Origin: an uncultured Pseudomonadales bacterium
GTDB lineage: Bacteria > Patescibacteriota > Microgenomatia > UBA1400 > PJMF01
Assembly: GCA_964583795.1 (NCBI GenBank)
Contig: CAZOWX010000003.1
Location: 23,978-87,977 of the forward strand
Reading direction: 5' to 3'
Length of the DNA stretch: 64,000 nucleotides
The notes below the pieces were generated by a model. The model was not told the origin of the DNA and searched no databases. It worked only from the letters and a program-made list of their open reading frames with translations. A program made the position numbers and the translations under genes. Numbering within the stretch: the stretch's first letter is position 1; each line of letters begins with the position of its first letter. Below, one piece after another: positions 1,869-60,683 of this stretch.

Positions 1869-2155
1869 GTACCAGAGCGTCGGGTTTCAGGTATAAGGGA
1901 CGATGTAAGTCTATACTGCCTCGTCTTTAGTCCGTTGATGAAGATGTAACTCTGAAAAACAGTTAAAAATAAAAAGTCGTCATCCCGAACAGATCTGGTG
2001 AGGAACGAACCAGACAGATTCGGGATCTAAAGTTTGAGCACTTTTTTGTCATAATAAATGAAATCGATAATTTCTGTTTAACTTCGAAGTATTTTGACTT
2101 TAGATCCCGATGTTCATCGGGATGACGACTTTATTATTTACCTTCATCCAAATCA

Positions 2156-2659
2156 TTAGCTCTTTTGTTGTTTGCAATACAGATCGGGCAAGATTGAACG
2201 ACTAGGTCTCTCTGGATCGACATAGATCACTACTTCACCACCCTCATTCATCTGTTTAGGAACCGGCAAGCAGTATTCAATTCCAGTGTACTGTTGCCCA
2301 TTAAACGAATAGTTATAAACGATGCCCCACCGATGAATTTGAGAAAAAATTGATATTGGTGTGACAATAAAACCCGATTGCGTGATCTTTCCCATGAGTT
2401 CTATATGGTGAGTGAAAAAATACTGTTTTTGCTTGATATTGCGATAAATAGGTAGTAAACCAAGAAGTGGAATAAACAAAAGTAAGAGGAGGGGACTGAA
2501 TGGATTTCCTTTATCTATCTCTGGAGAGGTTGTAAGCACATAGATATATGAAACCAAAAAGCTCAATGATTGAAAGGAAAAGATCGCCAAAAGACCAGCG
2601 ATCGTAGCAGTCACTAGATTTTTTGAAAAATAAAGCTCAATCGAAAATTTTCTTTCCAT
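2156..2659 (-). CDS. DUF3592-like two-TM membrane protein (paralog 1)
   Basis: N-terminal MERKFSIE, two TM helices, C-terminal beta region ending ...VVIYVDPERPSRSILPDLYC. It is the tandem paralog of the adjacent gene. Confidence 0.55.
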   Translation of the reverse strand: MERKFSIELYFSKNLVTATIAGLLAIFSFQSLSFLVSYIYVLTTSPEIDKGNPFSPLLLLLFIPLLGLLPIYRNIKQKQYFFTHHIELMGKITQSGFIVTPISIFSQIHRWGIVYNYSFNGQQYTGIEYCLPVPKQMNEGGEVVIYVDPERPSRSILPDLYCKQQKS

Positions 2660-2661
2660 AG

Positions 2662-3180
2662 CTATCCATTGCTCGAATTTTGGTTGTGATTGTTGGGTTT
2701 ACAATACAAATCAGGCAAGATTGATCGATCTGGTTTTTCTGGGTTGAGATAGACCGCCACTTCATCACCAACTTTAAGTTCCTTTGGTATTGGCGCTATG
2801 TATGTAACGCCCATATATTCTTGACCGTTGTACGAATAGGTATAACGAATTCCATGTGTGGGTGAATCTGAAAGGACATCAACCAGTGATCCGATGTATC
2901 CTGTTTGTGTTATTTTTCCAGTAACTTCAGCATGATGTTGAAAGAATTTTTTTGTGTTTCGAATACCTATCCAGACAACCAAGAGTAGAACATAGGGAAT
3001 CAAAATCCAAAGCATTTGGACACTCAAATGAAAGCTTCTTCGTTCAGAAATGAGGAACGTGATTCCGAAAATTAATCCTATTACAAAAAACTGTGCAGCA
3101 AATATGATCCCCAAAACAGCAAGAAATGCAGCAGGAAGGTTTGATTTAAAGTATTGTTCAATCGAGAATTGTCTTTCCAT
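2662..3180 (-). CDS. DUF3592-like two-TM membrane protein (paralog 2)
   Basis: MERQFSIE... and ...VAVYLNPEKPDRSILPDLYC. It shares conserved blocks with 2156-2659, including the N-terminal MER(K/Q)FSIE motif and the C-terminal RSILPDLYCK. Confidence 0.55.
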   Translation of the reverse strand: MERQFSIEQYFKSNLPAAFLAVLGIIFAAQFFVIGLIFGITFLISERRSFHLSVQMLWILIPYVLLLVVWIGIRNTKKFFQHHAEVTGKITQTGYIGSLVDVLSDSPTHGIRYTYSYNGQEYMGVTYIAPIPKELKVGDEVAVYLNPEKPDRSILPDLYCKPNNHNQNSSNG

Positions 3181-3385
3181 ATAAAGATATCATAGAAAAG
3201 AGAGTGGGGGATGTAAATGTGATAGGGAAATCTTTGTTTTTATTTCCCAATAGACATAGTTGCGGTAACAAAGTGCTGGTATAGAGGGGAAGAGCAAAGT
3301 TGTTCTGTTGTTGGGTGGTTGAGTTGTTATAATGCACGTAATCACTTAACAACCCAACAACTAACAACATAACAACCCAGTTTCA

Positions 3386-58091: not shown

Positions 58092-60347
58092 ATGTACCTC
58101 GTCATTGTCGAATCACCCACCAAAGCACGCAAACTCTCTTCTTATTTGGGCAGTGAGTATCAAGTCAAAGCCTCAGTTGGTCATGTTCGTGATTTACCCA
58201 AAAGTAAGTTGGGTGTTGATACAGAACATGAGTTTGAGCCAATTTATGAAGTGAATGAAGATAAACAAAAAGTGGTTAAGGAGCTGCAAAAACTATCGAA
58301 AGAAGCGAAGAAAGTCTTTTTGGCAACTGACCCTGATCGAGAAGGTGAAGCGATTGCGTGGCATATAAAGCACTTACTCACCCCAGAGAAGAAAAGTAAA
58401 GGGAAAAAAGGTTCCACCAGTAAAACCATTCCAACTGACTTTTTTCAACGTGCGACATTTCATGAAATCACCAAAACTGCCGTGATGTCAGCAATTGATC
58501 ATCCTGGAGTGATCAACATGGATTTGGTTGATGCACAGCAAGCGCGCAGAGTTGTCGATCGCTTAGTGGGATATAAACTCTCTCCAATTTTGTGGAAAAA
58601 AATTCGCCGCGGATTGTCTGCCGGCAGAGTGCAATCAGCGGCACTGCGCCTAATTGTTGATCGGGAAAAAGAAATTTTGGCCTTTAAACCGGAGGAATAT
58701 TGGGAAGTCGATGTGTTACTTGACTCTCAGCCAAAGGCTGATCCGCCCCGGGCGGAAAAAGTGAACTACAAAAAAGAAAACGAGAAGGGTGTAATTCAGT
58801 TTATTGAGGAGTTACCTGAGGAAATGTTTGTGGCACGGGTGATTGAAGTGCGGGGCAGTAAGTACGAGCCCAAACAAGAAAGTGACGTCAGTACAGTAGT
58901 AGAGGACTTACAAAAAGCGAACTATTTGGTCAAAAAGGTAGATCGGAAAGAACGAACCCGATCCAGTTTACCGCCATTTTCAACGTCCCTGTTACAGCAA
59001 GCAGCGGCGAGTCGGTTAGGTTTTAGTGGTAAACAAACCATGACGTTAGCGCAACAGCTCTATGAAGAGGGACTGATTACCTATCACCGTACTGACTCGT
59101 TCAACCTCTCTACGCAGGCAATTGAGATGGCACGTTCGTATATAAACAAAGAGTATGGCAAGCAGTATTTACCAGCCCAAGCGAGGATGTTTGCAACAAA
59201 ATCAAAAAATGCTCAAGAAGCGCACGAGGCAATTCGGGTCACTGATGTTGCTGTAGAACCCAACTCTATTCGTCAACACTCTTCACGTTTCACTGATGGA
59301 CATCAAAAACTCTATGATCTGATCAGAAGACGCTTTTTGGCCAGTCAAATGGAGGCGGCGGTATATGATGCGACGACAGTGACAGTAGAAGCGAGTAAGG
59401 GGAGTAATTATTATCTGCTTAGAGCTTCTGGTTCCACCTTGAAATTTGATGGATGGATGAAACTTTTTCCAAATAAAGGGGATACTATCTTGCCAGTACT
59501 AAAAGAGCGTCAGCCAGTTGAGTATACTGATTTGAATGCGGCGCAAAAGTTTACGCAGCCACCAGCGCGTTTCAATGATGCTTCGCTCGTAAAAACACTC
59601 GAAGAAAAGGGTATTGGTCGACCGAGTACCTATGCGTCAATTATTAGTGTGATTGTTGAGCGTGGATATGTGGAGCGAAAAAACAAACGGTTTTTTGCAT
59701 CACCTGTAGGTATTACGGTGAGTGATTTTTTGGTCGAGTACTTTTCTGAGATTGTGGATTTTGATTTTACTGCAGAAATGGAAGAGGACTTGGATCGCAT
59801 TTCTCGAGGTGAGAAACAATGGCGAAAAGTTGTGAGTGAGTTTTTTAAGCCATTCGAAAAAACCTTGCTTAAAGCAGATAAGAGTGCTGATCGGGCGCAG
59901 ATTCCTGTTGAAGAAACCGGAGACAGTTGTCCCGAGTGCGGTTCGAAGGACCATGGCAAAGTGGTGATTCGTTCAGGGAGGTTTGGCAAGTTTAAGAGCT
60001 GCAATCGATTCCCAGAGTGTAAGTATACCGAAGCGATGGTTGAAACCTTAGAAGGGGTGAAGTGTCCGCTGTGTACTGAGGGTGATGTGGTGGTGAAAAA
60101 TACCCGCTGGGGGAAGTCGTTTTATGGCTGTTCACGTTATCCTGATTGTGACTGGGCGAGCTGGAGCAAACCAGATCCGGAACTGCGATTAACGAAAGCG
60201 CAGTGGGAAGTGATGAAAAAAGAGCGCGCAGAGCGCACCGCAAAAAGGCGAGCGACAATGGAGGCACGGTACGGAAAGAAGGGGGCGAGAGGTGCAGCAT
60301 CAGCGAAGAAAGAGAAGAAGACGGTTGGGAAGAAGGGAAAGAAGTAG
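58092..60347 (+). CDS. topA: DNA topoisomerase I
   Basis: Toprim N-terminus (VIVESPTKARKL), catalytic Tyr region, C-terminal C4 zinc ribbons, K/R-rich tail. Confidence 0.95.
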   Translation: MYLVIVESPTKARKLSSYLGSEYQVKASVGHVRDLPKSKLGVDTEHEFEPIYEVNEDKQKVVKELQKLSKEAKKVFLATDPDREGEAIAWHIKHLLTPEKKSKGKKGSTSKTIPTDFFQRATFHEITKTAVMSAIDHPGVINMDLVDAQQARRVVDRLVGYKLSPILWKKIRRGLSAGRVQSAALRLIVDREKEILAFKPEEYWEVDVLLDSQPKADPPRAEKVNYKKENEKGVIQFIEELPEEMFVARVIEVRGSKYEPKQESDVSTVVEDLQKANYLVKKVDRKERTRSSLPPFSTSLLQQAAASRLGFSGKQTMTLAQQLYEEGLITYHRTDSFNLSTQAIEMARSYINKEYGKQYLPAQARMFATKSKNAQEAHEAIRVTDVAVEPNSIRQHSSRFTDGHQKLYDLIRRRFLASQMEAAVYDATTVTVEASKGSNYYLLRASGSTLKFDGWMKLFPNKGDTILPVLKERQPVEYTDLNAAQKFTQPPARFNDASLVKTLEEKGIGRPSTYASIISVIVERGYVERKNKRFFASPVGITVSDFLVEYFSEIVDFDFTAEMEEDLDRISRGEKQWRKVVSEFFKPFEKTLLKADKSADRAQIPVEETGDSCPECGSKDHGKVVIRSGRFGKFKSCNRFPECKYTEAMVETLEGVKCPLCTEGDVVVKNTRWGKSFYGCSRYPDCDWASWSKPDPELRLTKAQWEVMKKERAERTAKRRATMEARYGKKGARGAASAKKEKKTVGKKGKK

Positions 60348-60427
60348 TGATGGTTAGGCCTCAGGGATTAGAGCTTTGGGCTTAGGAAGTCGAAATGCTT
60401 ATCGGTCAATTTTTAGAAAACGCTTAT

Positions 60428-60500
60428 CGTCCTCGACCCGATGAATGAACCCGGTCTTCCCAGGGCGGATCGAGTGAAGCCATCGACCATCGGGGATCCG
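60428..60500 (+). repeat. Hairpin MITE-like repeat, long subfamily (CGTCCTCGACCCGATGAATGAACCCGG...CATCGGGGATCCG)
   Basis: Forms an inverted pair with 60612-60683. Confidence 0.55.
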
Positions 60501-60611
60501 TAAAATACAACCTTTGAAGATCGATTGCTTTTTTGTTTTTTTTAATTATTAATCGAGTGTATAACCGATTCTGACAAGAGAAGTGATATTGTTGAACACA
60601 CGTCAAAGAAT

Positions 60612-60683
60612 GGATCCCCGATGCTCGACTGAGCTCTCTTGGCCGTTGGCCAGGATTTCTCTGTCGGGTCGAGGATGACGAGC
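60612..60683 (-). repeat. Hairpin MITE-like repeat, long subfamily
   Basis: Its reverse complement is about 95 percent identical to 12418-12488. Confidence 0.6.

Follow-up and report, generated by a model that had tools for sequence, protein, structure and literature searches.

Repetitive extragenic palindromes (REPs) tagged with an unpaired CGTC, and the Ssn nucleases with their target repeats, are the closest described counterparts of the hairpin repeats that we analysed in a 64,000-nucleotide stretch of contig CAZOWX010000003.1 (assembly GCA_964583795.1, positions 23,978 to 87,977; hereafter the window). In CGTC-tagged REPs the tag (also TGTC or CCTC) precedes stems of 8-9 bp that nearly always start with complementary A and T residues, loops are typically of 4-5 nt, with exceptions noted, and the tail is CCA (Di Nocera, 2013; PMC3733652). 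Dimers with the tags outside ('HH') are the commonest arrangement and lie between unidirectional or convergent open reading frames (ORFs), occasionally within genes. That survey, which placed Neisseria dRS3 and Rickettsia RPE-4 and RPE-6 among these elements, reported no dedicated transposase or associated enzyme and found that CGTC REPs never flank RAYT genes (PMC3733652). Ssn is a single-domain GIY-YIG nuclease of about 94 aa, specific for single-stranded DNA (ssDNA), whose gene is flanked by NTS/SRM hairpins (Chenal, 2025, Nat Commun; PMC11893778). The Neisseria repeat NTS is CGTCATTCCCGCGMAVGCGGGAATCYRG, and SRM relatives flank ssnA in many phyla. SsnA binds the motif solely as ssDNA and cuts a few nucleotides upstream; binding depends most on the C after the palindrome, and cutting on the three nucleotides before it. 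In Neisseria, NTS-SsnA modulates natural transformation, and the NTS-ssnA-NTS unit was likened by the authors to an insertion sequence (PMC11893778). CGTC REPs, described in 2013 without an enzyme, were thus linked to Ssn ssDNA nucleases in 2025, and the window leaves this basic picture of the literature unchanged.

We consider it likely that the repeats of the window represent an expansion, specific to this lineage, of the CGTC-tagged REP superfamily (dRS3/NTS, SRM) in a host of the candidate phyla radiation (CPR), together with an Ssn-type nuclease gene. The window shares with the NTS/SRM-Ssn system the CGTC head, the stem starting with AT, the C past the stem and a GIY-YIG gene of about 95 aa between heads-out copies, with many more copies dispersed in intergenic DNA; the two copies beside the gene (e15 and e16 below) fit the published motif exactly. 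With CGTC REP families 1-4 it shares the tag variants, the stems of 8-9 bp with an A-T/T-A start, the CCA tail (in the copies of class B), outside-tag dimers, heterodimers, the type of spacer and in-frame intragenic copies. In contrast to the described Ssn systems, the host is represented by a Patescibacteria metagenome-assembled genome (MAG), a phylum unmentioned in the text of PMC11893778, its copies are mostly long, nested or extended, and two hairpin classes, of which class A carries extensions on both sides, stand beside one nuclease gene. The phyla of the CGTC REP survey were Proteobacteria, Chlorobi, Bacteroidetes, Spirochaetes and Thermotogae, with no CPR (PMC3733652). What is new here is modest and consists of the CPR host and the density, long nested variants outside the published motif, a second hairpin class whose own nuclease is probably encoded in another part of the genome, a co-variation of protein subclass and hairpin, and presence or absence in relatives.

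The hairpin family and its placement

In the strict scan, a hit had to consist of the head GTC[AG]T[CA]C and, immediately after it, a perfect stem of 7 bp or more, and 100 dinucleotide-preserving shuffles served as control. The scan returned 15 hairpins, whose perfect stems run for 8-11 bp from the first A, compared with 0.11 ± 0.31 in the shuffles. Imperfect and long copies, which share the stem base with bulges, were added by inspecting every near-match to CGTCATCC, and brought the count in the window to 26-27 elements, in agreement with the original prediction of a superfamily of more than 20 hairpins. The 39-mer core that had been proposed was present at 13522, 29396 and 55257 with 3, 2 and 0 mismatches, respectively, and was absent from the shuffles. 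The long copies, stem variants and inverted pairs listed at that time were all recovered, either exactly in place or displaced by at most 1-3 nt, and the two 70-bp copies at 12418 and 60612 (e08 and e26) are 96% identical, close to the earlier figure of about 95%. The stem variant at 24577 held for its 3' half, TTCAGGAT, but not for its 5' side, which reads ATCCGCTG, so this stem is degenerate. The pairs 6408/6643 and 27901/28331 and a double-headed palindrome at 29793-29837 had been overlooked, as had the nuclease gene and the fact that this class of repeat already stands in the literature. An Rfam scan of the whole window gave no family at gathering score. The elements are the following:

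e01, 1978-2038 (+), class A, long loop; paired with e02
e02, 2092-2127 (-), class A, short
e03, 5242-5312 (+), class C, long; TGTC head, tail CTGACTC
e04, 6408-6468 (+), class A, long loop; paired with e05
e05, 6555-6643 (-), head CGTCATCCTCGAC, degenerate long body, tail GGATT
e06, 11543-11587 (+), class B, 18-nt hairpin inserted past the basal stem; paired with e07
e07, 11657-11692 (-), class A, short, TGTC head, weak stem
e08, 12420-12489 (+), class B, long, 70 nt; paired with e09
e09, 12638-12708 (-), long hybrid with nested palindrome TCCCGCACTGCGGGA, tail CCA
e10, 13524-13560 (+), class A, short
e11, 14298-14375 (-), class C, long, head CGTCATAC
e12, 16211-16255 (-), class B, 38-nt hairpin, tail CCA
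e13, 23099-23127 (-), class A-like, short; in frame within an ORF
e14, 24577-24629 (+), class A, long, 5' stem half degenerate
e15, 27901-27927 (+), class B, canonical CGTCATCCCGGCGAAGGCCGGGATCCA; left of the ssnA-like gene; matches the SRM motif; DNA fold -9.7 kcal/mol, z -3.85
e16, 28305-28331 (-), class B, canonical; right of the ssnA-like gene, 4 nt past its stop codon; matches the SRM motif
e17, 29398-29434 (+), class A, short, TGTC head; paired with e18
e18, 29667-29702 (-), class A, short
e19/20, 29793-29837 (no strand), double-headed palindrome CGTCATCCTTGATTT...AAATCAAGGATGACG
e21, 29907-29951 (no strand), degenerate duplicate of e19/20, within a 114-bp tandem duplication
e22, 55167-55227 (+), class A, long loop, TGTC head
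e23, 55259-55295 (+), class A, short; paired with e24
e24, 55435-55495 (-), class A, long loop
e25, 56953-57031 (-), class C, long
e26, 60611-60680 (-), class B, long, 70 nt
e27, 60427-60500 (+), long hybrid, head CGTC then CTCGAC (3-nt deletion of ATC), tail CCG; paired with e26

All elements follow one plan, in which an unpaired (C/T)GTC head precedes a stem that opens with ATCC and closes with GGAT, with a C right after the stem, and in which the interior varies from a loop of 3-5 nt to some 50 nt of added sequence that mostly pairs with itself. The minimum-energy DNA fold left CGTC unpaired and ATCC:GGAT paired in nearly all copies. Among 24 aligned copies the head GTCAT.C was invariant (24/24) and its first base was C in 20 and T in 4. 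The bases 5' of the head are A-rich, with A at -5 in 20/24 and T at -1 in 17/24 copies. Covariation was assessed on 20 distinct copies, aligned over their heads, their tails and the nine stem positions at either end. All 20 keep A:T and T:A as their outermost stem pairs, and the next two pairs, both C:G, stand in 19/20 and 18/20, respectively. The four distal stem pairs covary: 93.8% of the cells were paired, and both sides had changed in 30 cells, compared with 10.0 ± 2.7 after shuffling. The covariation score was reached by 0/500 shuffles, and slid registers fell to 17-54% paired. The first C of the tail was conserved in more than 90% of the copies. Tails read CCA in e06, e08, e09, e12, e15, e16 and e26, CCG in e27, CTA in class A and CTG in class C.

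Loops of 3-5 nt were found in about nine copies (e02, e10, e13, e15-e18, e23 and, marginally, e07), while the others carry 13-50 nt of additional, mostly self-pairing sequence within the basal stem, far more than the loops of published CGTC REPs. Several long copies correspond to a short copy with a nested hairpin, such as e06, with its 18-nt insert, and e09, with the palindrome TCCCGCACTGCGGGA. Class A copies carry a conserved 3' extension of 11 nt, TAAAGTCAGAG, and about 28 conserved nucleotides on the 5' side, and certain copies are identical across 34-36 nt. According to stem and tail, the copies fall into these groups:

Class A: stem ATCCYGAA, tail CTAAAGTCAGAG, about 12 copies, loops short or long
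Class B: stem ATCCCGGC or long, tail CCA, 8 copies, e15 and e16 among them
Class C: long, 70-79 nt, opening ATCCTTGACCCGATGAATGAACC, tail CTGACTC, 3 copies
Hybrids: e09 and e27
Double-headed palindrome: 2 copies, e19/20 and its degenerate duplicate e21

The density, put earlier at one copy per 3 kb, is indeed high, at about one per 2.4 kb, but the spread is uneven, the region from 30 to 55 kb being empty. The 26 copies occupy 14 of the 34 unidirectional or convergent spacers and none of the 9 divergent ones, and every copy except e13 lies in a spacer downstream of at least one gene. Contrary to the claim that all copies are intergenic, e13 lies in frame inside the ORF 22737-23540, in a variable low-complexity linker. 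A position just downstream of stop codons, also claimed, applies only loosely: the type of spacer is constant among intergenic copies, but distances to the left-hand gene range from 4 to 689 nt. The dprA gene (55682-56908) lies between two hairpin clusters, e22-e24 upstream of it and e25 downstream.

Such a placement would suit a role at the RNA level, in which the hairpins serve as transcription terminators or stabilisers of mRNA 3' ends and the adjoining nuclease gene is incidental. The strand opposite the head often reads hairpin-GACGACTTTTT, and most REPs have been argued to be transcribed (Di Nocera, PMC3733652). We nevertheless judge this role, whose terminator version figured in the original prediction, to be unlikely. 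A consensus terminator scan flagged none of the hairpins, and terminator-like sites overall showed no enrichment (23 versus 17.5 ± 5.3). The T-run of the opposite strand begins about 6 nt past the stem, and the copies flanking the nuclease gene, like those of class B, have no T-run. In addition, the unpaired invariant head and the 3' C play no part in termination, yet they fit the recognition determinants of Ssn, and both the heads-out pairing and the same architecture at 38 other GIY-YIG loci would be left unexplained.

In all nine adjacent pairs the heads point outward (9/9; P of about 4e-6 under random orientation). The pairs are 150-431 bp long, plus one of 852 bp, and their spacers, which show no similarity to one another, measure 60-375 bp, compared with 20-100 bp in the published CGTC REPs.

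A further palindrome of 15 nt, TCCCGCASTGCGGGA, is present in six exact copies at 585, 4538, 12664, 29317, 29539 and 47881, and in none of the shuffles. The copies are preceded by CNTC(A/G); one is nested in e09 and another is read in frame as SSRSAGK within the dnaX linker. This palindrome is probably a degenerate relative of the CGTC family.

The nuclease gene and its flanking hairpins

Two perfect hairpin copies, e15 and e16, enclose a small gene, in the order hairpin-ssnA-hairpin with the heads outward:

27901-27927 (+), hairpin e15
28007-28300 (+), ssnA-like gene encoding a 97-aa single-domain GIY-YIG nuclease (Pfam PF01541, E 9.6e-13, residues 4-78)
28305-28331 (-), hairpin e16

The two arms are 27 nt long and 100% complementary (the repeat arm I13 spans 28 nt). 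Both read CGTC-ATCCCGGC-GAAG-GCCGGGAT-CCA, a textbook REP of the CGTC-1 type. They are also the only matches in the window (2 versus 0.19 in shuffles) to the published SRM search motif, HGTCWYN(0-2)YYVSBRHN(0-5)WNVSBRGN(0-2)RNCYNB, which is a search tool and no definition. Since this motif catches less than a tenth of the copies found here, published copy numbers may be underestimates for long-loop lineages.

In the 97-aa protein, residues Y8, Y19, G21, R29, H33, E66 and N85 are invariant among relatives, and the spacing of Y8, Y19 and E66 (11 and 47 residues) equals that of the catalytic residues Y6, Y17 and E64 in N. meningitidis SsnA. The AlphaFold2 model (pLDDT 94.2, pTM 0.86) adopts a GIY-YIG fold, whose closest counterparts in the PDB are 1ZG2 and 1YWL, both of them single-domain GIY-YIG proteins, followed by the nuclease domain of Slx1 and by UvrC; sequence searches against PDB chains and NCBIfam gave no match. 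No second ssnA-like copy, whole or decayed, was found in the window, and a Pfam scan of 64 window ORFs revealed no transposase, RAYT or integrase. Among the roles suggested before, that of a nuclease site is the one favoured by this gene and by the conserved GTC head, basal stem and 3' C, which are the parts needed for SsnA binding and cutting in Neisseria (PMC11893778).

The arrangement recalls REPINs (Bertels and Rainey, 2011), where a single-copy enzyme gene is likewise flanked by its own dispersed palindromes, inverted doublets occur, and hairpins in ssDNA are the presumed substrate of the enzyme. Short palindromes, a fixed unpaired tetranucleotide and spaced inverted pairs are features of REPINs as well (PMC3116915 and PMC3337134), and would be compatible with REPs or REPINs mobilised by a RAYT, that is, by an IS200-like TnpA. 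We regard this origin as extremely improbable. The RAYT enzyme is an HUH tyrosine transposase and its tag is GTAG, whereas the gene flanked here encodes a GIY-YIG nuclease and the tag is CGTC, a type of REP reported never to lie beside RAYT genes (PMC3733652); no Y1 transposase was detected in the scanned ORFs. The subterminal hairpins of IS200/IS605 resemble those of Ssn in that an imperfect ssDNA hairpin is recognised and cleavage occurs a few nucleotides to one side, but the protein fold and chemistry are different, and the window has no transposase.

The cassette, together with 87 bp, is bracketed by an 8-bp direct repeat, CCCCAACG, at 27891-27898 and 28418-28425, which may be a target-site duplication or due to chance. 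This repeat, the heads-out inverted pairs of 150-431 bp and the sequence common to class A copies over about 28 nt outside the head could also be accounted for by MITEs (miniature inverted-repeat transposable elements) of a classical insertion sequence with a DDE transposase, the hairpins being terminal inverted repeats. Such an origin seems very improbable, however. The flanks of the pairs are inverted and not direct, so the pair ends have no target-site duplications; the spacers within pairs are unrelated, many copies are single, and no transposase is present in the window. Moreover, each arm folds alone and covaries internally, which is not needed in terminal inverted repeats.

Occurrence in relatives and possible mobility

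The CysS protein of the window shares 70-80% identity with proteins from Patescibacteria and Pacebacteria MAGs, an assignment with which the earlier guess of a small genome agrees; a cluster look-up of window proteins gave no close relatives at 90% identity. A relation to the small dispersed repeats or MITEs of Nostocales, suspected from the 42% GC and from heptamer arrays, was dropped on account of these CysS homologues.

Two relatives, L001 (GCA_039934415.1) and L002, are syntenic with the window from 8 to 46 kb. In these loci (2 x 21 kb) no hairpin of the family was detected (head GTC[AG]T[CA]C and stem of at least 6 bp), and a looser generic scan gave 2 and 1 unrelated matches, under the chance rate of window shuffles. 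Both relatives also lack the nuclease cassette. The spacer between cysS and the next gene measures 49 bp in L001 and 596 bp in the window, where the cassette sits, and the empty site of L001 contains a single sequence similar to CCCCAACG. Near-strain contigs (L003-L006, 91-99.75% identity) differ from the window at e06 and e08, in line with the strain polymorphism that had been suggested as a check: L004 lacks e06 and keeps its partner e07, and its e08-type element is displaced by about 240 bp in the downstream direction, behind another repeat. At least three near-strain contig ends fall inside elements (both ends of L003 and one of L004), as assemblers break at multi-copy repeats, and a fourth adjoins e19-e21. 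Together with the copies identical over 34-36 nt and the two empty syntenic relatives, these differences make the recent proliferation proposed in the original prediction plausible.

We also examined 80 genome loci from many phyla that encode relatives of the 97-aa protein (47-65% identity). A generic scan, which looked within 400 bp of the gene for (C/T)GTC followed by a perfect stem of 6 bp or more and a C, detected hairpins at 38 of the 80 loci, of which 30 have them on both sides and 8 on one. Among the two-sided loci the upstream copy mostly lay on the gene strand and the downstream copy on the opposite one, that is, with the heads outward. The published SRM motif found a copy in 23 of the 80 loci, and copies on both sides in 8; one flank (L011) carries the exact NTS consensus. 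Flanked loci occur in about nine CPR lineages (Moranbacteria, Doudnabacteria, Daviesbacteria, Wolfebacteria, Levyibacteriota, Falkowbacteria, Moraniibacteriota, Gracilibacteria and one more), and certain of them also have long-loop copies and reach local densities of 0.5-0.9 per kb. With the same architecture, long loops and densities at other CPR loci, the features of the window are not unique. The class A pattern GTCATCCN{6,36}GGATCTAAAGTCAGAG was matched exactly neither in 185,579 species genomes nor in JGI metagenome contigs. The exact 26-mer of e15 was found in 20 IMG/VR viral or prophage contigs (59-72% GC), none of them with a nuclease gene close by, which points only to a wide spread of this hairpin sequence in unrelated hosts.

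Nine (C/T)GTC hairpins lie within 10 kb around the ssnA homologue of L051 (Moraniibacteriota UBA12141; 1858-9329), where at least four copies belong to a long-loop variant of 61 nt, TGTCATCCTGAAAAATAAAATTTCTTAGCGAGG...TTCAGGATC. The window is thus not alone in its long-loop expansions.

Protein subclass and hairpin class went together at these loci. Ssn proteins of the GTLYxG type, to which the window's belongs, were flanked by CCSGC-type stems in 54 cases and by a GAA-type stem in 1, and GAA-type stems (ATxCYGAA, tail CTCC) flanked only xVLY proteins (L046, L051, L078 and L080). As GTLY-type proteins go with CCSGC stems, the ssnA-like gene of the window matches class B. Class A copies are most likely served by another Ssn gene elsewhere in the genome, to judge from these sequences; otherwise they might be cross-recognised through the common head, basal stem and 3' C, or be orphaned. 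The mixed pair e06 (class B) and e07 (class A) indicates that both classes at least share sites. The co-variation of subclass and hairpin could help to match Ssn enzymes to their targets as ssDNA tools.

Several observations weigh against a simple Ssn-driven expansion. The assignment of the 97-aa protein to the Ssn type is a prediction from Pfam, size, modelled fold and genomic context, with indirect support from the NTS-type hairpins beside its relatives (47-65% identity), one of them the exact NTS consensus. About 24 copies depart from the SRM motif through loop length and stem composition, most of them holding 13-50 nt inside the stem instead of a 4-5 nt loop, and stems of the class A type (ATCCYGAA) flank only the other Ssn subclass elsewhere, so the nuclease of the window may not act on 12 of the copies. 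In the spacers of gene-less pairs, tblastn found no decayed nuclease gene. Finally, the identity of class A copies over about 28 nt outside the head extends past the expected cut site, which argues against a unit bounded by the cut and leaves a simple 'cut at the head and move' scheme without explanation for it.

By analogy with the Neisseria and Wolbachia enzymes, the 97-aa protein would bind the hairpin only in ssDNA, for instance during replication, repair or DNA uptake, by means of its head, stem base and 3' C, and would then cut the bound strand a few nucleotides 5' of the head. Two such cuts in a heads-out pair would be expected on opposite strands, at the outer ends of the unit. Gene-less pairs are best seen as derivatives or companions of the cassette, comparable to REPINs beside a RAYT gene. 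Because a GIY-YIG nuclease cannot ligate, spread would need repair or recombination by the host. The window encodes dprA, ssb (46764-47294), recR (11730-12335) and topA, and cultured Patescibacteria are naturally competent (PMC10633639), which makes a role in the handling of incoming single strands, as in Neisseria, conceivable.

We propose only tentatively, and with more doubt than conviction, that the cassette and the gene-less pairs constitute a currently active mobile system, made up of a GIY-YIG ssDNA nuclease and host recombination, that would be the missing engine of CGTC REP spread in an ultra-small CPR bacterium that is probably naturally transformable, and that some 0.4 copies per kb also mark the genome for the cutting of single strands, incoming or replicating, and thereby set the length and rate of recombination tracts. 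If this were true, the positions conserved in the copies (GTC head, four basal pairs, 3' C) would form the minimal recognition code, with the distal parts free. The contrast of fixed and variable positions offers in any case a testable guess at that code, and the window, with about 26 copies in 64 kb and a nuclease gene of the cognate type, is a compact natural case in a reduced CPR genome.

Further features of the window

Two convergent tRNA-like elements of about 70 nt, at 13647-13718 (+) and 14119-14189 (-), lie 400 bp apart between e10 and e11. They share an identical 24-nt 3' part (T arm and acceptor) and a G3:U70 pair. In Rfam they matched only the ends of the transfer-messenger RNA (tmRNA) model, at 25-32 bits versus a gathering score of 47. 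ARAGORN made no call by default and, with thresholds at 90%, called tRNA-Arg(GCG) and tRNA-Arg(ACG) with 3-bp D stems. The pair, which was not found in loci L001-L086, is embedded in 1.26 kb of non-coding DNA that replaces a gene for a 203-aa protein of L001.

A segment of 2.6 kb at 35469-38066 (GC about 0.39), with two minus-strand ORFs, one of them for a subtilase-like S8 peptidase, is missing from the 98%-identical L005, which has about 190 bp instead. The difference is an indel between strains and has no relation to the hairpins.

A double-hairpin repeat, GCCAGYCCAAGGCTGG-TCCGCCTTGGGCGGA-GAGTGTG, was found at 5135-5182, 13441-13488, 50372-50419 and 58720-58767. Two of the copies directly follow stop codons (dnaX and hpf), a third lies where a minus-strand gene starts, and the fourth, which is diverged, lies within topA.

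Perfect tandem arrays occur in intergenic DNA at 7827-7879, 47669-47723, 57983-58023, 50474-50540 and 6657-6707. Their units are GGTTCTA (three sites, 6-8 repeats), CTTGCGG (9.6 repeats) and the octamer AACCACAT (6.4 repeats), and such arrays are unusual for a reduced genome.

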